A DNA stretch of 64,000 bases from Candidatus Moraniibacteriota bacterium (GTDB taxonomy: Bacteria > Patescibacteriota > Minisyncoccia > Moranbacterales > UBA1568). Position numbers and translations under genes: made by a program. Location: the NCBI GenBank assembly GCA_028688415.1, contig JAQTYF010000001.1, positions 577,895 to 641,894 on the forward strand, read 5' to 3'. The notes below the pieces were generated by a model. That model was not told the DNA's origin, ran no database searches, and saw only the letters and a program-made list of their open reading frames with translations. Positions 3,345 to 47,409 of the stretch are shown here, piece after piece. Numbering within the stretch: position 1 is the stretch's first letter; every line of letters starts with the position of its first letter.

Positions 3345-3552
3345 TTTTAAATCTCCAGTTGTTAAGTTTACAAAAAATCAGCTCAAAGCTGATGTTACAG
3401 CATACAAATCTTCCCCGCTTTTGTCAAACGGGGAAATGGCCTCAAAAAGAGAAAATCCCCTACCAACAGGCGGAGAATTTTTACTAGACATGTGCCAAGC
3501 CCTGCCTGTCGGCAGACAGGAGTTGGCGTACTTTATGTCTTCAACTTCGTTG

Positions 3553-3624
3553 TAGCCCTAAGGGGAATCGGACCCCTGTTACCAGGATGAGAACCTGGTG
3601 TCCTAACCATTAGACGATAGGGCC
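3553..3624 (-). tRNA. tRNA-Glu (anticodon CTC)
   Basis: Reverse complement GGCCCTATCGTCTAATGGTTAGGACACCAGGTTCTCATCCTGGTAACAGGGGTCCGATTCCCCTTAGGGCTA folds as a cloverleaf. Anticodon stem CCAGG/CCTGG, loop TTCTCAT. Closely resembles E. coli tRNA-Glu. T-loop reads TCCGATT, i.e. C at the usually invariant U55. Confidence 0.6.
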
Positions 3625-3666
3625 GTAAAGAAACTTTTCCATAATAACTATGGAAAACCTTCTTAG

Positions 3667-3737
3667 CAGGAGCGGTAGGAATCGAACCTACGCAAGCGGA
3701 TTTGGAGGCCGCTGTACTACCATTATACGACGCTCCC
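3667..3737 (-). tRNA. tRNA-Trp (anticodon CCA)
   Basis: Reverse complement GGGAGCGTCGTATAATGGTAGTACAGCGGCCTCCAAATCCGCTTGCGTAGGTTCGATTCCTACCGCTCCTG. Acceptor GGGAGCG/CGCTCCT, anticodon loop CTCCAAA, T-arm GTAGG-TTCGATT-CCTAC. Confidence 0.75.
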
Positions 3738-3844
3738 GTGCCTTTTTTCTGAAAATTCAACAAACAAAAAACAGTTAACCATTTAACAAAAAGCAGATAC
3801 TATCATTCTATCGTGCTTACTGTTTTTTGTTAACTGTTGCTTGA

Positions 3845-4006
3845 TTATTTGCTCTCAGCGTGAGGAGTGTTCTTCTTACAAAAACGACAATATTTCGAAA
3901 GAGCAAGCTTTTCTTTCACCTTTTTCTTATTGCGCTTGGTGTAATGTGTGATACGACTACACAGAGAACACTTCAGTTTTACCATGGTATCTTTTATCTG
4001 TCCCAT
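3845..4006 (-). CDS. rpmG: 50S ribosomal protein L33
   Basis: Manual translation MGQIKDTMVKLKCSLCSRITHYTKRNKKKVKEKLALSKYCRFCKKNTPHAESK (53 aa) carries the L33 Cys4 zinc ribbon. Below the 60-aa ORF-track cutoff. Sits between tRNA genes, the usual tRNA/rpmG context. Confidence 0.8.
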   Translation of the reverse strand: MGQIKDTMVKLKCSLCSRITHYTKRNKKKVKEKLALSKYCRFCKKNTPHAESK

Positions 4007-4086
4007 AACACTCTTCTTTACTAGCTATTTACAAAGCCTTTCTACTCTACCTGAAAGAAGGCTATTCGTCAACCTGAGCCGTTGAT

Positions 4087-4159
4087 CGGGATTGAACCGA
4101 TGACCTCGTCATTACCAATGACGTGCTCTACCAACTGAGCTACAACGGCATACTTTCAA
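4087..4159 (-). tRNA. tRNA-Thr (anticodon GGT)
   Basis: Reverse complement GCCGTTGTAGCTCAGTTGGTAGAGCACGTCATTGGTAATGACGAGGTCATCGGTTCAATCCCGATCAACGGCT. Anticodon stem GTCAT/ATGAC, loop TGGTAAT. Confidence 0.8.
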
Positions 4160-4273
4160 AGCACTTTGTATAGACTATCAAGAAATGTGTGCTCTGGCAA
4201 GAAAAATCTTATGGACGAAGAGATTAATTCAGTTGTTTCATTCAGAGAAATATAGAAACTGATAATAAGTGTT

Positions 4274-4312
4274 TGAAAAAGAAAAAGGCCGATGAATGAT
4301 ATCATACGGCCT
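4274..4312 (-). terminator. Rho-independent terminator downstream of the GC-rich ORF
   Basis: Minus-strand transcript forms the hairpin ggccgtatgatatcattcatcggcc followed by tttttctttttc. Confidence 0.45.
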
Positions 4313-4348
4313 CAAGGCGAGTTTTCGCATGAAGGGAACAAGTGACGT

Positions 4349-4735
4349 CTACGCGTCATTGAAGCATTGCCAGAACTCCTGGCGGGTCTTGACCGGCTTC
4401 ACGACTTCCGCGGAGTTGTGATCAAAGAGAAACAGAGCGAATGCATGATTCGGAAAACCCTGTCTCATCCAGTACTCGGCCGCTTCAGGAGATTTTTGCT
4501 GAAGCGCTTCGATTGCGTGCGTCTGGAGCACGATGTAGCCGGGGTAGTCCAGGACTTCAAGTCCCGTCTCCACATCATGCATCGTGTCACCTGCGTTTGA
4601 TGGCACTCCGTCGTGTGAAAACAGACACGGCACCTCGACCCCGATCCACTGCTCACGGATCTGGAGTGGTGCTCCCCCGCGTGGGACGGAAATGAAGCGG
4701 ATCGTCCCCAGATCTTCCATTTGAATTTGGCGCAT
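4349..4735 (-). CDS. Hypothetical protein in an approximately 55 % GC islet (possible acquired gene; start uncertain, ORF open to 4795)
   Basis: The ~450 bp of coding sequence is about 55 % GC against ~38 % around it. Chosen start MRQIQMEDLG has gagagg 8 nt upstream. Has its own terminator. No recognised domain. Confidence 0.45.
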   Translation of the reverse strand: MRQIQMEDLGTIRFISVPRGGAPLQIREQWIGVEVPCLFSHDGVPSNAGDTMHDVETGLEVLDYPGYIVLQTHAIEALQQKSPEAAEYWMRQGFPNHAFALFLFDHNSAEVVKPVKTRQEFWQCFNDA

Positions 4736-4881
4736 GAAAAAACCTCTCATTCCAGAACACATGCCAACACAGGCAAGATGTAATAAGATAATCACGAATA
4801 AGACTAAGAGTCAATGGTCCATTCGAATCCTATCCTAAATAACAAAAACGAGGATTTTTAACCCATCATTATATATTATGG

Positions 4882-5046
4882 GATTCAGTCACAAATATTT
4901 TTCTTGCCGTCGCACTTCTCGAAAGCCAAACAAATTTGAAGAGGGATTCCTCCTCCACCATCGCTGTGCCGGAGGCACCGCGACTCCTCCAGAGCCTGGG
5001 TTTTTCAAAAGCCAAGCATATTTAGATTCGGTCACAAATATTTTTC
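4882..5046. repeat. Pair of 22-bp direct repeats gattc(a/g)gtcacaaatatttttc (4882..4903 and 5025..5046) in the non-coding stretch between the GC-rich ORF and tRNA-Tyr
   Basis: 21 of 22 positions identical, 143 bp apart. Additional hairpins ggaggcaccgcgactcctcc and gaaagccaagtagttggctttc. The overlapping ORF 4878..5315(+) runs across tRNA-Tyr and is judged spurious. Confidence 0.5.
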
Positions 5047-5165
5047 CTGACGGAAAAATTTCGCGTCCCCGTCTCACGGTATTCGCCTTGCTCTGCGAGC
5101 AAACTCATACATCGTTCCGACTTTCTCATCCCTCTCGAAAGCCAAGTAGTTGGCTTTCTCCTGCC

Positions 5166-5204
5166 AAAAATAAAAAAACTTCCTTTCGGAAGTTATTTTA
5201 TTTT
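5166..5204 (-). terminator. Intrinsic (bidirectional-type) terminator after tRNA-Tyr
   Basis: aaaaaaacttcctttcggaagttattttatttt: stem aacttcc/ggaagtt, A-run upstream, T-run downstream. Confidence 0.6.
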
Positions 5205-5205
5205 G

Positions 5206-5288
5206 TGGGCAGGGAGGGATTCGAACCCCCGAAGGCCGAAGCCGACAGATTTACAGTCTGTTGTAATAGACCACTCTACCACCTACCC
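5206..5288 (-). tRNA. tRNA-Tyr (anticodon GTA), long variable arm
   Basis: Reverse complement GGGTAGGTGGTAGAGTGGTCTATTACAACAGACTGTAAATCTGTCGGCTTCGGCCTTCGGGGGTTCGAATCCCTCCCTGCCCA. Anticodon stem ACAGA/TCTGT, loop CTGTAAA. Class II variable arm. Confidence 0.8.
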
Positions 5289-5314
5289 ATACCATATCTC
5301 TTGTCCTTCTTTTG

Positions 5315-5387
5315 AGCCACCTGTCAGACTTGAACTGACGACCCACGGTTTACAAAACCGTCGCTCTACCAACTGAGCTAAGGTGGC
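5315..5387 (-). tRNA. tRNA-Thr (anticodon TGT)
   Basis: Reverse complement GCCACCTTAGCTCAGTTGGTAGAGCGACGGTTTTGTAAACCGTGGGTCGTCAGTTCAAGTCTGACAGGTGGCT. Anticodon stem ACGGT/ACCGT, loop TTTGTAA. Confidence 0.8.
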
Positions 5388-10847: not shown

Positions 10848-11006
10848 TTATCGTTTCTTTGTTACTTTCTTAGCGGCCTTCTTGACTACTTTTTTTACAG
10901 CTTTTTTTGTAACTTTCTTAGCTACTTTTTTTACAGCTTTTTTTGTAACTTTCTTAGCTACTTTTTTTACAGCTTTTTTTACTGTTTTCTTTTTTGCTAC
11001 TGCCAT
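10848..11006 (-). CDS. Small lysine-rich repeat protein (52 aa), histone H1-like/basic nucleoid-protein-like composition
   Basis: Manual translation MAVAKKKTVKKAVKKVAKKVTKKAVKKVAKKVTKKAVKKVVKKAAKKVTKKR with strong SD aaggaggtga 5 nt upstream. The track ORF 10810..11025(+) is the opposite strand of the same repeats. Confidence 0.6.
   Translation of the reverse strand: MAVAKKKTVKKAVKKVAKKVTKKAVKKVAKKVTKKAVKKVVKKAAKKVTKKR
10861..10980. repeat. About 3.3 tandem copies of a 36-bp unit (gtaactttcttagctactttttttacagcttttttt) inside the lysine-rich CDS
   Basis: Two perfect units at 10909..10944 and 10945..10980, plus a diverged unit with a 12-nt insertion. Units keep the frame and encode KKAVKKVAKKVT. 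Not CRISPR-like. Confidence 0.6.
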
Positions 11007-41247: not shown

Positions 41248-41313
41248 CCCTGCGCATTCAATTCCATTCTAAAGCGCGACATTCAGACAGAATGAATGTT
41301 TTTTTTCAACGAA

Positions 41314-41470
41314 CAAAAGAATTTTTCATCATCCTTTCCACTCTGACTGAGCAAGAGCTCTCAGATCGAAAAAAGAAGCTAAGAGTGTGTTGATTGGAGG
41401 CTTCTTTTTTCGTTTTACTGAGAGCTCTTGTGAGAGGTGGAACGATGATGAAAAATTGGCTTTTGGTTGT
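41314..41470. repeat. Copy B of the ~155-bp palindromic MITE/ERIC-like element
   Basis: About 90 % identical to 238..392. Central hairpin cgaaaaaagaagc / gcttcttttttcg is perfect here. Lies between the csoR promoter and the stop of the giant surface-protein gene. Confidence 0.6.
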
Positions 41471-41509
41471 TGAAAAGAGAAAGCTTCATTTCAAGAGAGA
41501 CTGTAGTCC

Positions 41510-44500
41510 TTAAAACTTCGCCCATCCAAACATATCATTGAAGTTCCCGATAATCATCTGTACAACATTTTCAGTTTGTTGTGGAGTAATAATCATTTTT
41601 TCTCTTGAGATGCTTTCATTACCTGCTTTATCGATAGACTTGGCCTTGAGAAAATAGACAGAACCAATCTTGAATGATGTGAGCACTATCACGTGTGAAG
41701 TCGATGGATCGGTCGGCATATCAATCGTCTTTTCTTCTCCATTCGATCCTTCTTTGTAAGCAATGGAAGTGGTGGCTGGTTCATCAGTGTACCACGAAAC
41801 AATAGCCTGGACTTTGCCATCTTGAGCGAGAGCCATATCAGTTTTGAGTTGGTCAATTTCTGGAGCAGTGGTATCTTGACTCGTTGTGAAGTTTTTGGCA
41901 TCCTGAGTCACCTTGTTCCCTGCTTCATCTGTCGCAACGATCTTGGCATTGTACACCGACCCTGGTTTCAGTCCCTTGAGGACGACAGTGTGCGAGAGGG
42001 AAAGATCAGGCTTACCCTGAGACCCGGTATCAGAACTCTCCTTGGTATTCGTATAGGAGACGGATGCATCGGTCGGAACGCTCGTATTGAAACTCACTTC
42101 GACTTCCGTATCAGAAAGTACTTTGGTCGTGACATTACTAATTCCCGGAAGAGAACGGGGCGAGAATGTGTAATCAGAAGAAGCGAAAAGGTTGTTTAAT
42201 TTATCCTTACCTTTGACACGAAAATGATAAAGTTGATTGCTCTCGAGCTTGTTGACAGTCATTGTGTGCGTCTTCGTTTGGGTATTACTTTCTTGTTTGT
42301 CTCCGTACGTTTCTGAGAGACCGTATTCCACAATAGAAGACATAAGTGTACTCGTTTTCCAAGCGAGAACTGCTTCGCCGATTTTGTTCGAAACGATATT
42401 GATAGAAGAAATGGTCGAAGGAGAAGTAGTAGTGAAAGAGGATTCGGAGGAAGTAGTGAGATTGCCTCTCGCATCGGAAGAAAGGACGACAAAATAATAT
42501 TTGGTACTCGGGATGAGATTCTTGAGAAAAATCGTATGTTCGACAGCGTACGTCTCGATAGCTGAATTGATCACATCTTCTCCGGACATATCTCCATAAT
42601 CCGTCGTGATGCCGTACCTCACGTACCCATTACTGACCTCATCCGTACTCCATGTCACCGTTGCATTCTCTCCTGTCACATCTGACACATTCACACTCGA
42701 GATTGTCGGGGATATCAGATCACCCCCTTCGCTTCCGCTGTCTACCTGTATCGGTTTGGTCGTGAAACTCGCTTCATCAGAAACAACCACTGTGTCGAGA
42801 TTATCGATACAGGTTGCCTGGTAATAATAAATCGTCGAAAAGAGAAGTGATGGAAGCGTGATAGAGTGGCGCTTGTTTTCGAGAGTCTCAGTGACTGGAG
42901 TGGCTGCATAATTGCTCGGGGCAGTGCCGTACTCGATCGTACAGAGAGCAGGCTGGTCTGTAACAAGTGAGATGACGGCATTCGTATCAGTGATAAGTAC
43001 CGTATTCATCCCTGTGATACTCGTCAGTGGATCGTGCTGGAAACTCGGATCCGGAAGTGTCTTGAAAGAGTTTTGTGAGGAAAGTGTCGTATTTCCAGAA
43101 AGATCAGCAGAGTAGGCTTTGAAATAATAAGTAGTGTCAGCGACGAGAGAGGGAAGGATAACAAAATGATCCTGTCCATAAGTGACAGTTTCTGTAGTAC
43201 TGGTATACGGTCCTCCTCCAGTAGTAGCATATCGTATCTGACTCGTACTTTGTTCATCGGTGAGCCAAGTGATAGCTACTCGATCATACGTGATGACAGA
43301 AGCTCCGAGAGTGGAAATGACAGGACTTGTATTGTCCGTGGTAGTAGTGAATTGATAGAAAACGCCTCCATTGGTATCGAGAGCCATATTACTATCCGTA
43401 TCTTCTGATTTCACAAAGAAATAGTAAACCGTACCAGGTTGCAATCCTGATATTGTCTGAATATGACTCGTCGTGAGTGGAGTGGTACCGACTTCGGTAG
43501 GAGCGACGAGAGCAGTTTCTGATTTTTCTGTTGAGTAAGAAATATAAGTAGAGGCAGGAATATCCGTGTTCCAACCTATTGTTGCCTGAGTATTCGCGGC
43601 GCTCGAGAGAGCAACATTGGAAATAGCTGGACCTGGATTGGTAGTGAACGTATATCCTGTTCCCCCGTTATTATCAGTACCTTCGTTGCCTGCTGGATCA
43701 GAAGATTTGACCTGATAGAAATACGTTGTAGCAGGAGTGAGACCGGTAAGTACGACGCTATGGATACCACTTCCTCCAGTGTTATCCGCATAGTTGAACA
43801 CGCCGATTTCATCAGTGAAAAATCCACTGTTAACGGAAAAACCGACCGTCGAAGTAGAGAGTTCGTTGGTATCCCAAGTGATAGTGACTTGAGTTGTCGA
43901 AACTGCAGAATGAATAACATTGGAAATAGCAGGCGGAGTGGTCTCTGATCCCCCTCCTCCTTCTCCAGAATCTTGAGTACCATTTGGCTTTCCTTGAAGA
44001 GTCGACGACATCCAAGAAACGTTTCCGACGTTGTCTGTCATCTTGACCTTGTAGTAACGAATCGTGTCAAAAGTGACAGTCTCATCAATATAGTAATTAG
44101 TACTTCTGGAATTGATAGTAGCGACGAGAGAAAAATTGACATTGTCTCCTGACGCATAAAGTTTGTAATTGGCGAATCCATAAAAAGGTTCGGCAACCGT
44201 TCTCCAAGAGATGAAGAGTTTCCAATCATTATTCAGAGCATTCGACACATCTTGAATAATCATAAGAGTCGGAGTTTCTGTCGAAGTGACAGAGGAAATG
44301 ATTGTTTCATTGTTGTAGACATCTCGATACTGAACATAGACGATGTCTGGATTGGTAGCGAGTGTGAGGAGCTTCGTTCCATTATAGGCTTCGTAGGTGG
44401 ATCCAGAGAGATCAGAATTCAATCCAACTTTCATTTCAATCGTGGAATCATCAGTCGCAGAGAGAGTGACACTCGCTGGAGTGAGCGATGCATCAACCAA

Positions 44501-46927
44501 AACAGGATAGGATCCGAGCGTTGGCGCCTTGGAATCAAATGTGATGGTATCAGTCGCTGTGGCAGTATTGTTGGCAGCTTCATTGTCATTCACGGTCACT
44601 TTCACTGAAAGAGTCGTGCTATAGGTATTGGTAATATCAGTCTTCGCGTCCCAGATAGCTTCGTACTGTGTGTAGTTTGCAATATCGACACTCTTGTTAG
44701 CTGTGGCATTGATAGAAAGATTGGCACTATTGATGGTAACGAAACCAGACCCATTGTCATAGGCAAAGGAAGGAGTGATGTATCCAGGAGTGTTCGTTCC
44801 ATCGGTAGTATCGAAATCTTTCACTCGATAGATGATACGGATTTTTCCCCAGTCAGAATCGAGATTATCAGAAATCTGTGAGACTGCGAGACCATTAGTA
44901 TTGTAAGCAGTGTCAAATTCTGGAGCAGCATTCACCACATATTGTGATGTCACACTTGTGAGGATCGGGGTGATAGCACCGCCTGAGGTAAGAGTCACTC
45001 GGTATTGGAAATATTGATCATCCGATCCTGTCATGAGTGGATGCGTCGGAGAGAGTGTCACCCCATTGTCACTCTCGGTGAAATATGTAGATCCTGAACA
45101 ATCAGTGTATCCACACCAGGAAGCAGATGTGAGACCTCCGAGAGTAGACGCAGAACGCACTTGAAGTTTCACAGTATCACTGGCACTCGTATTTGTCGCT
45201 GTCCAACTCATTTTGGAGAGAAGATTGGCATTCGAGGAAGAGTCGTACGGAGAAGAAAGAATCTCTCCTGATGTGTACTGGGAGTAGTCGATGGTAACAG
45301 AGTCAAGAGTGGGTGAAACAGACGGATCAGTTGTCGAAAAATTCGCACGATACTGCATGTATTGATTGCCTGATAATGATGAGATGTCTCCACCATTCGC
45401 GACACCAGTTGTCCAGGAAGTCCACGAACCATCTGGCGTCGCAGTATTACCCGCCCGGACGTCCATCGTTATGGTTTGTCCGTTGAGTGTCGTAGCATAA
45501 CCAAAAGTGGAAAAGGAGGCAGACGCTCCGAGGTTAATAACGGCAGAAGTGAAAGTACCAGAAGCTACTTCGGGAAAACGATTATATTGAGATACAGTAA
45601 CATTACCATAATTAGTCACGTAGACCGATGTTCCATCAGGAGAAATCGTTATACCGATAGGACTTGCTCCTGCCGATATTGTTTCGGGGGTAAGTGGAGT
45701 AAGAATTCCAGTACTGGTATTTCTGTTGTATTGAGATACATTTGAGCTTGATAAATTGGCAGTGTAAGCCGATGCTCCAGACGAAGAGATAACAATACCA
45801 TACGGACTATTAGATGTATTTATAGTATCTACATATGTAAGCAAACCAGTACCTATATTTCTGTTATATTGAAAAATGCGTTGATAATCATAATTAGTTA
45901 CATAGACCGATGTTCCATCAGGAGAAATTGTAATACTATAGGAACCATTCATTGTGGATATCGTTGCAGGGGTAAGTTGAGTAAGGAGGCCAGTGCTGGT
46001 ATTTCTGCTGTATTGAGATACTTCATTATAATTATTTACATAAACTGACATCCCATCGGAAGAAATTATAACATTATTCGGTTGGATTCCTGTAGATATC
46101 GTTGCGGGGGTAAGCGGAGTGAGGAGGCCAGTGCTGGTATTTCTACTGTATTGAGATAATGTATTACTACCATAATTAGCCACATAGACTGATGTTCCAT
46201 CAGAAGAAATTGTGATACCACGAGGACTCGTTTCTGCCGATATTGTTGCGGGGGTAAGCGGAGTGAGGAGGCCAGTGCTGGTATTTCTGCTGTATTGAGA
46301 TACGGTAGTGTTACCAGAATTAGTTACATAAACTGATATTCCATCGGGAGAAATCGTAATACCGATAGGATTTGCTCCTGCCGATATTGTTGCGGGGGTA
46401 AGCGGAGTGAGGAGGCCAGTGCTGGTATTTCTGCTGTATTGAGATAATGTATTACTACCATAATTAGCCACATAGACTGATGTTCCATCAGAAGAAATTG
46501 TGATATCACGAGGCTGTGTTCCTGTAGGTCTCGTTGCGGGACTGAGTGCTGTAAGCAATCCACTCTTTACAAATTCTACTCTCGCTCCACTGCCGCTTCC
46601 CGTCACCTGTGTTATATTATTCGTTCCATTCCCAAATCCCCCACCTGTTGCCAGTCCTTGTGGTATCGTCGTCCCATCATCGGTGAAAGTATAACCGGTA
46701 GCAGGGAGTTTCACATCAGTCCCAACCGTCAGTCCACTCTGACTCGTATACTCATTCCAGTTCGTCTGATTGCCAGGATGCACGGCAGTATTCACCGTCA
46801 CTCCACCACTCCAGCTATTCTGGGTAAATGTATATGTCGCTCCCTGTGAACCGAGTGGCAAGAGATAGGTACCACTGACGATCACAATGACGAGCAAGGC
46901 CGATACCTGTGCTTTCCAGCTGCCCAT
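41510..46927 (-). CDS. Giant surface protein (~1,806 aa): signal/TM anchor, ~8-9 YVTN-type beta-propeller repeats, multiple fibronectin type III-like domains
   Basis: Start taken at MGSWKAQVSALLVIVIVSGTYLL; the preceding 124 track codons are AT-rich, K/R-rich leader. Repeats SQYSRNTSTGLLTPLTPATISAGANPIGITISPDGTSVYVTN. FN3-like AISNVIHSAVSTTQVTITWDTNELSTSTV and similar. Confidence 0.75.
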   Translation of the reverse strand: MGSWKAQVSALLVIVIVSGTYLLPLGSQGATYTFTQNSWSGGVTVNTAVHPGNQTNWNEYTSQSGLTVGTDVKLPATGYTFTDDGTTIPQGLATGGGFGNGTNNITQVTGSGSGARVEFVKSGLLTALSPATRPTGTQPRDITISSDGTSVYVANYGSNTLSQYSRNTSTGLLTPLTPATISAGANPIGITISPDGISVYVTNSGNTTVSQYSRNTSTGLLTPLTPATISAETSPRGITISSDGTSVYVANYGSNTLSQYSRNTSTGLLTPLTPATISTGIQPNNVIISSDGMSVYVNNYNEVSQYSRNTSTGLLTQLTPATISTMNGSYSITISPDGTSVYVTNYDYQRIFQYNRNIGTGLLTYVDTINTSNSPYGIVISSSGASAYTANLSSSNVSQYNRNTSTGILTPLTPETISAGASPIGITISPDGTSVYVTNYGNVTVSQYNRFPEVASGTFTSAVINLGASASFSTFGYATTLNGQTITMDVRAGNTATPDGSWTSWTTGVANGGDISSLSGNQYMQYRANFSTTDPSVSPTLDSVTIDYSQYTSGEILSSPYDSSSNANLLSKMSWTATNTSASDTVKLQVRSASTLGGLTSASWCGYTDCSGSTYFTESDNGVTLSPTHPLMTGSDDQYFQYRVTLTSGGAITPILTSVTSQYVVNAAPEFDTAYNTNGLAVSQISDNLDSDWGKIRIIYRVKDFDTTDGTNTPGYITPSFAYDNGSGFVTINSANLSINATANKSVDIANYTQYEAIWDAKTDITNTYSTTLSVKVTVNDNEAANNTATATDTITFDSKAPTLGSYPVLVDASLTPASVTLSATDDSTIEMKVGLNSDLSGSTYEAYNGTKLLTLATNPDIVYVQYRDVYNNETIISSVTSTETPTLMIIQDVSNALNNDWKLFISWRTVAEPFYGFANYKLYASGDNVNFSLVATINSRSTNYYIDETVTFDTIRYYKVKMTDNVGNVSWMSSTLQGKPNGTQDSGEGGGGSETTPPAISNVIHSAVSTTQVTITWDTNELSTSTVGFSVNSGFFTDEIGVFNYADNTGGSGIHSVVLTGLTPATTYFYQVKSSDPAGNEGTDNNGGTGYTFTTNPGPAISNVALSSAANTQATIGWNTDIPASTYISYSTEKSETALVAPTEVGTTPLTTSHIQTISGLQPGTVYYFFVKSEDTDSNMALDTNGGVFYQFTTTTDNTSPVISTLGASVITYDRVAITWLTDEQSTSQIRYATTGGGPYTSTTETVTYGQDHFVILPSLVADTTYYFKAYSADLSGNTTLSSQNSFKTLPDPSFQHDPLTSITGMNTVLITDTNAVISLVTDQPALCTIEYGTAPSNYAATPVTETLENKRHSITLPSLLFSTIYYYQATCIDNLDTVVVSDEASFTTKPIQVDSGSEGGDLISPTISSVNVSDVTGENATVTWSTDEVSNGYVRYGITTDYGDMSGEDVINSAIETYAVEHTIFLKNLIPSTKYYFVVLSSDARGNLTTSSESSFTTTSPSTISSINIVSNKIGEAVLAWKTSTLMSSIVEYGLSETYGDKQESNTQTKTHTMTVNKLESNQLYHFRVKGKDKLNNLFASSDYTFSPRSLPGISNVTTKVLSDTEVEVSFNTSVPTDASVSYTNTKESSDTGSQGKPDLSLSHTVVLKGLKPGSVYNAKIVATDEAGNKVTQDAKNFTTSQDTTAPEIDQLKTDMALAQDGKVQAIVSWYTDEPATTSIAYKEGSNGEEKTIDMPTDPSTSHVIVLTSFKIGSVYFLKAKSIDKAGNESISREKMIITPQQTENVVQMIIGNFNDMFGWAKF
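45500..46540. repeat. Near-identical ~140-bp tandem DNA repeats encoding the YVTN blades inside the giant gene
   Basis: cgttgcgggggtaagcggagtgaggaggccagtgctggtatttct(g/a)ctgtattgagata recurs near 46103, 46240 and 46383; a further ~60-bp exact duplicate lies at 46158..46217 and 46447..46505. Confidence 0.6.
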
Positions 46928-47409
46928 CAATACTTGTCCTACTTCTTTAATTGATTTGGAAGCAAGGCTTCCAAAAGATGGAAACAAGCTTCCAAATCTC
47001 CTCTGTTTCTTATGCGATATGACATCAGAAAGTACTCTCTTCTTTTTCTTGGAGAGGAGAGCGACAAAAAAACCAGTTGTTTTTTTTATTGTTTCTAGGA
47101 GTACTACGAAGAAATTTTTCTTCCATTCCGAAAAATGACGTCTGAAGAAAGTGCTTCTTTTTCTCTGCATTCTCTGCGGTGCAACACTATCAAAACACCC
47201 TTTCTTTCTCTGAATGAGGGTTTGATATGGTTTTCTTTTTTCTTCTACAAAAGACACTCTTCGCATAGTGTTTCTTTTTGTTTCTTCGCGCTCAAACATG
47301 GGTGTTCAAAAAAGAAACATCCATTGAAAGTATACCATAGAAATCTTCTTTTTGAAGAGAAAAAAGCCGTCTCTCGAAAAGAGATAACGGCTTATAGGAA
47401 AAATGAGGG

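Follow-up and report, generated by a model that had tools for sequence, protein, structure and literature searches.

How a surface protein built on internal repeats comes by its variation is the question raised by a very large gene of Candidatus Moranbacteria, a member of the Patescibacteria or candidate phyla radiation (CPR). The gene lies on the minus strand of a stretch of 64,000 nucleotides (contig JAQTYF010000001.1 of assembly GCA_028688415.1, positions 577,895 to 641,894), which we call the window and whose own numbering is used throughout. An initial annotation, made from the letters and open reading frames of the window, had proposed that near-identical tandem units in the propeller-coding part of the gene change the number of propeller blades by slipped recombination and thereby vary the cell surface. 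We favor, as fairly likely, a different reading, in which the gene encodes a secreted, filament-like surface protein whose propeller was amplified from a single blade and partly homogenized by gene conversion, and which acts as an adhesin or receptor-binding protein. For this gene the outcome is mostly one of correction: the protein is longer than thought, its supposed leader is coding, its blades number seven, and its repeats speak of gene conversion and not of demonstrated copy-number variation.

A seven-bladed propeller

The head of the protein is a propeller of the YVTN/lactonase type. AlphaFold, working from an alignment of 17 sequences, predicted a closed ring of 28 strands with two beta-sandwich domains after it, and the predicted local distance difference test (pLDDT) of the propeller was 95 to 98. 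The initial annotation had counted eight or nine YVTN blades; we count seven, B1 to B7, of 46 to 48 residues each (46585 to 45590), and these make up the closed ring of the model. The Pfam model PF10282 (Lactonase) scored 110.2 bits against a gathering cut-off of 21.7. Moreover, the top Foldseek match was 1l0q_A, an archaeal surface-layer (S-layer) structure with YVTN and PKD domains, at 26% identity, and phmmer against PDB found the same chain with an E value of 2.6e-29. The YVTN model TIGR02276 itself reached 23.3 bits, below its cut-off of 27.85, probably because the blades exceed the 42-residue unit of that model by about 6 residues. Thus, the suggested YVTN domain match failed, and kinship to YVTN propellers stands through the sequence and structure of 1L0Q.

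Blades differ from one another chiefly at particular columns. In two groups of loop columns, the blades show 3.5 and 4.25 residue types per column, compared with 1.5 to 2.0 elsewhere, and by the strand order of the model, the variable columns fall in the D-A and B-C loops. These are the loops that in propellers make up the top face, where binding usually takes place.

A propeller of this type might instead be catalytic, a surface-displayed lactonase or related hydrolase with the fibronectin type III (FN3) array of the protein holding its substrate. Pfam models Lactonase and SGL both match, and Foldseek also returned 6-phosphogluconolactonases and PpgL. All NCBIfam enzyme models, however, scored far below their cut-offs (6-phosphogluconolactonase, for example, with 42 bits against 370), and identity to the enzymes was 16 to 20%, compared with 26% to the nonenzymatic S-layer YVTN domain. 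Moreover, relatives of the protein fill the same slot with nonenzymatic Kelch, glycine-rich, and NHL modules. Near-identity among blades is characteristic of binding scaffolds, which we also count against catalysis. We consider a catalytic propeller very unlikely.

Mosaic blades

How the propeller came by its repeats can be read in part from the blades. Between 45889 and 46540, Tandem Repeats Finder reported 4.6 copies of a 144-nt period, with 78% matches, and 2.2 copies of a 288-nt period, with 84% matches, in agreement with the tandem blade-coding repeat of the initial annotation. That the units of about 140 bp are almost identical was overstated, however, as the blades are 49 to 85% identical in DNA and 39 to 85% identical in protein, with a protein median of 65% (21 pairs). 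An exactly duplicated block had been noted as well, and we found it and more: one exact tract of 72 nt, one of 69 nt, and a third of 44 nt present in three copies (for the first two, see Table 1).

The exact tracts are arranged as a mosaic, in which blade 3 consists of the 5' half of blade 2 and the 3' half of blade 1. When B1 is compared with B3, the 5' halves are unrelated and the last 64 nt are identical, in a tract that runs on into the next blade to make up the 72 nt in total. When B2 is compared with B3, the first 64 nt are identical and the remainder is about 70% identical. The exact runs of both pairs are longer than permutation accounts for (P ≤ 5e-5). By comparison, B2 and B7 are 85% identical with their differences evenly spread. 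Identity extends to synonymous sites inside the tracts, which argues for recent shared ancestry. A mosaic of exact tracts within diverged blades points to interblade gene conversion or unequal exchange, and the earlier claim of recent recombination among the repeats is upheld in this form.

Single blades are amplified again and again into highly repetitive propellers, in the Lactonase-like and Kelch lineages among others (PMC9218822). Pereira and Lupas 2022 recognize such propellers by a median blade identity above 60% over at least two consecutive blades, and the median here is 65%. Their second criterion is that blades lack positional orthology to the blades of homologs, and this too was found: in seven comparisons, identity to homologs blade by blade was about the same on the diagonal as off it (0.53 versus 0.54 and similar).

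Blade number

Recombination between blades might also change their number. If the gene were a contingency-type locus, in which slipped or unequal recombination alters blade number and varies the surface, the exact direct repeats of 44 to 72 nt at offsets of 144 and 288 would be usable substrates, and the mosaic shows that interblade recombination has occurred. The gene nevertheless encodes exactly one full seven-bladed propeller, and among its relatives with lactonase-type blades, the counts gather around 7, 14, or higher (exactly 7 in 13 of 25 and exactly 14 in 2 of 25). The blades, moreover, share only 49 to 85% of their DNA sequence. Finally, NCBI lists the identical 1,918-residue sequence under two accessions, and no variant allele appeared in the collections searched for near-identical strains; the protein search returned only the identical protein, with next matches at 62 to 64% identity, and the best match in a scan of Joint Genome Institute (JGI) metagenomes was 53% identical. 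Thus, ongoing variation in blade number, as the initial annotation had it, is unsupported in this gene. Given the counts in the lactonase-type relatives, closure of the fold probably limits blade number, and from fold and family together we take seven to be the probable fixed number here.

The best support for the idea that blade number varies comes from another gene. A Kelch-headed relative in Moranbacteria was assembled from different samples with 3, 4, 5, 9, 14, 14, and 16 blades (the Kelch-headed set comprises L001 and L002 and P0002, P0003, P0123, P0126, P0127, and P0130 to P0133, the P0002 cluster of at least 90% identity). In the P0002/P0003 cluster, the head is made of 46-residue Kelch blades, with Kelch_4, Kelch_3, and Kelch_1 at 58.5, 52.6, and 40.1 bits, all above cut-offs. 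That these might be diverged YVTN blades was rejected, as hhalign gave a probability of 0.4% and the Kelch models exceeded their cut-offs. The Kelch arrays share prefixes and suffixes, and the remaining 1,367 residues differ at only 0 to 7 positions. Simple collapse would be no easy explanation for the series, because in two of the arrays, no exact repeat is longer than 56 nt, far short of the contig k of 141. An array of three to five blades cannot close on itself, however, and many contigs of the cluster end in the array, so that mixed-population assembly effects are possible. The series from 3 to 16 may thus be real polymorphism or an assembly effect, such as chimeric paths in a mixed population. 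We regard a contingency-type locus in the window as distinctly unlikely.

Breakage of contigs in the sister arrays also raises the matter of whether the repeats in the window are themselves an assembly artifact, with an array collapsed or expanded. The longest exact repeat, at 72 nt, should however fall below the length of ordinary reads and of the final k-mers of an assembly. Moreover, the array is in frame and complete and gives a confidently closed seven-bladed fold, the contig is 939 kb long, and the protein is the same under both accessions. We rejected collapse of this array on the size of its exact repeats (at most 72 nt) and the completeness of the fold, and an artifact of either kind is extremely improbable.

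Exchange of heads among relatives

The nearest relatives are 60 to 90% identical in protein outside the head, with 60 to 70% identity in the stalk, and DNA identity is 69 to 83% on both flanks of the head with none across it. Indeed, the DNA alignment to L002 covers 47341-47183, 46918-46619, and 45316-41516 and leaves the head unaligned. At L083, the head slot holds a glycine-rich domain, and at L084, it holds about 14 blades of another propeller type; other members carry Gly_rich_2, LVIVD, or NHL heads or, by precomputed domains, RCC1. The family is present in many Patescibacteria lineages, and from these sequence comparisons, its variation appears to run mainly via exchange of whole head modules.

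The protein might instead be a structural component of the envelope. It would then be an S-layer or S-layer-associated component, with propeller and beta-sandwich domains forming a lattice as in Methanosarcina. In keeping with this, its best match in both sequence and structure is the archaeal S-layer YVTN/PKD fragment 1l0q, the family is widespread, and the gene has its own conserved promoter and encodes conserved termini. The link to S-layers, however, appears to consist of similarity to the S-layer YVTN domain only. Moreover, free exchange of unrelated heads among close relatives better fits recognition than lattice contact, and 13 beta-sandwich domains in a row point to an extended filament and away from a sheet. 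A lattice component is, to our minds, decidedly doubtful.

A bolder reading is that the whole family is a retargetable attachment device. Promoter, N-terminal tail, N-domain, 13-domain stalk, and C-terminal motif would be constant, heads would be refilled by recombination with YVTN, Kelch, NHL-like, LVIVD, RCC1, or glycine-rich modules, and within populations, arrays would truly expand and contract (3 to 16 blades). Incomplete arrays might then fold by oligomerization, by analogy with designed constructs in which differing numbers of identical blades fold in that way (PMC6805158). We hold this reading to be on the whole unlikely, but if true, it would allow rapid changes of host or ligand range in ultrasmall episymbionts.

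Architecture and export

The protein consists, in order, of a 113-residue basic tail, a hydrophobic segment, an N-domain, the seven-bladed propeller, 13 beta-sandwich domains (4 Ig-like and 9 FN3), and an amphipathic C-terminal motif. This domain order supports the initial view of a Sec-targeted multidomain surface protein in which a YVTN-type propeller is followed by FN3-like domains. The signal or transmembrane anchor proposed at the N terminus was likewise found, as one strongly hydrophobic segment, VSALLVIVIVSGTYLLPLG. A signal-peptidase-like site, SQG↓ATYTF, falls between G142 and A143 (between 46841 and 46840), and in 18 of the 18 relatives having the motif, alanine stands at position -1 before ATY.F in an AXA-like setting. 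Signal peptidase may therefore cleave at SQG↓ATYTF. The motif at the mature N terminus, A↓ATY(T/N)F.Q.SW.GG (46838-46849), is conserved family-wide (members P0004-P0032).

The FN3-like domains expected after the propeller were confirmed by domain search, with PF16656 (Pur_ac_phosph_N) at 118 bits against a cut-off of 30 and PF00041 at 58.4 bits against a cut-off of 25. Moreover, a second model, of residues 566 to 1115 (pLDDT 87), contained five beta-sandwich domains matching FN3/Ig arrays. The last 25 residues, ending in ...TENVVQMIIGNFNDMFGWAKF, are conserved across the family, and the family-wide consensus of the C terminus is TP.Q..S(I/V).D(I/V)I.KNF...F(K/G)(F/W). Neither a sortase LPXTG motif nor a terminal membrane segment was found at the C terminus (...ITPQQTENVVQMIIGNFNDMFGWAKF).

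Gene start and 5' region

The very large minus-strand open reading frame ending at 41510 is present in the open reading frame listing, and its start lies upstream of the one first chosen. The initial annotation took an ATG at 46927 and 1,806 residues; the real length is 1,918 residues from the ATG at 47266, which is both the conserved ATG and the NCBI start. The translated product is 100% identical to the 1,918-residue NCBI entry [quoted passage not shown] Upstream of 46927, 372 nt are free of in-frame stops, whereas the two alternative frames contain 5 and 6. The upstream translation is kept in relatives, reading MRRVSFVEEKRKPYQTLIQRKKGCFDSV here, MRKVLFAQEKRKPYRTLIQKKKGSFDSV in L001 and L002, where it sits upstream of the called start, and MRRISFAHKKR...FDGV in L083. 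Because the frame is stop free, its translation is conserved, and NCBI places the start there, we conclude that 46928 to 47266 is coding. What had been described as a 480-bp AT-rich leader (46928 to 47409; 36% GC) is thus mostly coding sequence, and the noncoding gap is only 47267 to 47409.

The true intergenic gap, as read from its letters, holds a terminator-like hairpin and T-run after murD. A promoter-like site with an extended -10 element lies in the same interval (Table 1), and promoter and gene 5' end together are 75 to 83% identical in DNA to L001, L002, L083, and L084, where genomic contexts differ. In the comparison with L002, 47183-47341 aligns to 1534-1691. Promoter and first codons, at 83% DNA identity, are thus better conserved than the 3.8-kb stalk body, at 71%.

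The 5' coding region has features of its own. That the basic tail is long and conserved speaks for a role of the N terminus itself. The ttggaagc-type hairpin assigned to the leader exists, as TTTGGAAGC-CTT-GCTTCCAAA, but lies inside the coding sequence instead. Its core is a 9-bp perfect palindrome that encodes FGS..ASK, and an equivalent palindrome is kept twice in L001 (about 1780-1800 and 1892-1915), including palindrome-preserving codon choices. The kept codons suggest selection on DNA or RNA structure, perhaps as an operator or as an mRNA hairpin some 45 nt upstream of the codons for the membrane segment.

Proposed role

How such a protein might have arisen and might work can be put in a few steps. 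A single blade would have been amplified to a propeller, and gene conversion between blades would partly homogenize it. The requirement for ring closure would keep seven blades, and conversion would keep the framework uniform while loops differ. The top face, with its variable loops, would be the binding surface for a host cell, a glycan, or a particle, and the long exported filament would attach the cell, as an adhesin or receptor-binding protein. New specificities would arise mainly by replacement of the whole head on a conserved stalk. Finally, cleavage at SQG↓ATYTF would set the propeller at the far tip and make the C-terminal motif the attachment end, which is the least certain step. By analogy, an FN3 protein is one of several adhesins that epibiotic Patescibacteria require (PMC10633639).

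Several points weigh against this proposal. The permutation test behind the exact runs leaves uneven constraint along the blade unmodelled. Some of the 25 lactonase-type relatives were counted at 6, 8, 10, 11, or 12 blades, although missed, partial, or spurious blades may account for such counts, and the probable fixation at seven is read from one genotype only. A long conserved basic tail is atypical for a cleaved signal peptide. Were the N-terminal anchor to remain uncleaved, the head would sit near the membrane with the FN3 array pointing outward, an odd design for an adhesin. The adhesin role is argued from architecture and analogy and is to be taken as provisional. Moreover, the neighbors are housekeeping genes and offer no functional clue.

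Repeat amplification is an already-known route to propellers. A family whose close relatives keep the stalk and swap the head, and in which one population seems to differ in blade number alone, is a concrete candidate for a specificity determinant in the recognition of hosts or substrates by CPR bacteria.

Surroundings of the gene and other features

Downstream neighbors of the gene are MreB, MurA, TrxB, SDR, and a CsoR-like repressor, and upstream neighbors are MurD, an amidohydrolase, and GAPDH. Of 11 window neighbors, none (0/11) lay near the homologs in L001, L083, and L084, and because no neighbors are shared at these loci, the relatives may be paralogs or relocated genes.

Just 3' of the surface gene is a noncoding palindromic element with a second copy elsewhere in the window. 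The copies are about 89% identical over 180 nt, and both sit immediately 3' of minus-strand genes; the second (224-403) follows a PolB-exonuclease-like gene at 458 to 1171. As RNA, the element forms a single long hairpin (-79.6 kcal/mol, z = -10.4). It was absent from all of the relatives' loci examined, and it could be a repeat resembling a miniature inverted-repeat transposable element or a shared 3' structure. An Rfam scan of the whole window at gathering level returned five tRNAs only, with none of its matches in the 5' region or the 3' palindrome. The tRNAs form a minus-strand cluster at 3552-5387 (Glu-CTC, Trp-CCA, Thr-GGT, Tyr-GTA, and Thr-TGT). A further tandem repeat, at 10854-10982, has units of 12 and 36 nt (TTTCTTTGCAAC-like), the 36-nt unit being present in 2.8 copies with 96% matches; translated from the opposite strand, it would give a lysine/alanine-rich repeat.

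Table 1. Positions of the surface protein gene, its parts, and nearby elements in the window
Feature	Position	Strand	Remarks
Whole gene	41510..47266	minus	1,918 aa + stop; start chosen from frame, conservation, and NCBI call
Promoter-like site, extended -10, TTCAAA-16-TGgTATACT	47329..47356	minus	sequence reading
Basic N-terminal tail, aa 1-113	46928..47266	minus	29 K+R vs 7 D+E; conserved in relatives
Palindrome/hairpin within tail-coding DNA	46953..46998; core 46955..46975	minus	fold -26 kcal/mol, z = -3.8
Sole strongly hydrophobic segment VSALLVIVIVSGTYLLPLG, aa 121-139; signal-peptide h-region or membrane anchor	46850..46906	minus
Conserved N-domain of mature protein, ATYTFTQNSWSGG...GGGFGNGTN	46586..46840	minus	structure predicted at low confidence
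Seven-bladed YVTN/lactonase-type propeller and short closing segment	45566..46585	minus	Pfam, AlphaFold, Foldseek
72-nt exact repeat, copy 1, blade 3 tail into blade 4 head	46146..46217	minus	offset 288
72-nt exact repeat, copy 2, blade 1 tail into blade 2 head	46434..46505	minus
69-nt exact repeat, copy 1, blade 3 head	46234..46302	minus	offset 144
69-nt exact repeat, copy 2, blade 2 head	46378..46446	minus
Two beta-sandwich domains right after propeller (GTFTSAVINLG...QYMQYRANFS and similar second)	44930..45562	minus	in all family members
Two more Ig-like beta-sandwich domains	44261..44929	minus	second model, FN3/Ig matches
Nine FN3-type domains, about 100 aa each	41588..44260	minus	PF00041, PF16656
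C-terminal family-wide motif ITPQQTENVVQMIIGNFNDMFGWAKF	41513..41587	minus	predicted amphipathic
Noncoding palindromic element, about 180 nt, just 3' of surface gene	41300..41475	minus	second copy 224-403

Comparison with known systems

How the protein relates to known systems depends on which part is compared. The surface-layer protein of Methanosarcina mazei (1L0Q) is likewise exported and has a seven-bladed YVTN propeller followed directly by beta-sandwich domains. The blades here are 46 to 48 residues long, however, compared with the 42-residue YVTN unit, and the protein differs further in coming from a CPR bacterium, in its basic N-terminal tail, in a C-terminal motif of its own, and in its stalk, which at 13 domains is much longer. 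Surface proteins that vary by repeat number at contingency-type loci, such as streptococcal alpha C/Rib and mycoplasma Vlp, also have in-frame tandem repeats, are exported, and recombine between repeats, in arrays that are open ended and nearly identical in DNA. In contrast, the repeats here must close a sevenfold ring and are 49 to 85% identical.

The propellers of Pereira and Lupas 2022, such as WRAP of Nostoc (Npun_R6612), share with this one a median blade identity above 60%, blade identity at the DNA level, and the lack of positional orthology (PMC9218822). Compared with WRAP, this propeller is much less symmetric, with a median of 65% and synonymous differences, and its mosaic tracts do not resemble the outcome of a single, uniform amplification in the recent past. 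EsrA, a sensor of oral Actinobacteria that belongs to the Esr-type threat-sensing system, shares a Sec signal, an N-terminal propeller head, a long Ig-like filament, and the lack of LPXTG, and its head is the most diverse part of its family, as here (PMC13622651). EsrA differs, however, in having a WD40 head and co-encoded MoxR, vWA, kinase, and FHA proteins, and it belongs to the host side of an epibiont interaction (PMC13622651). An Esr-like signaling context was rejected for our gene, whose neighbors are MurD, an amidohydrolase, a CsoR-like repressor, SDR, and TrxB. Finally, the essential FN3, VCBS, and dockerin envelope proteins of Southlakia epibionticum, likened here by their description, are also patescibacterial, exported, and multidomain (PMC10633639). 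Their domain make-up is different, and they have been proposed to bind host surface glycans (PMC10633639).

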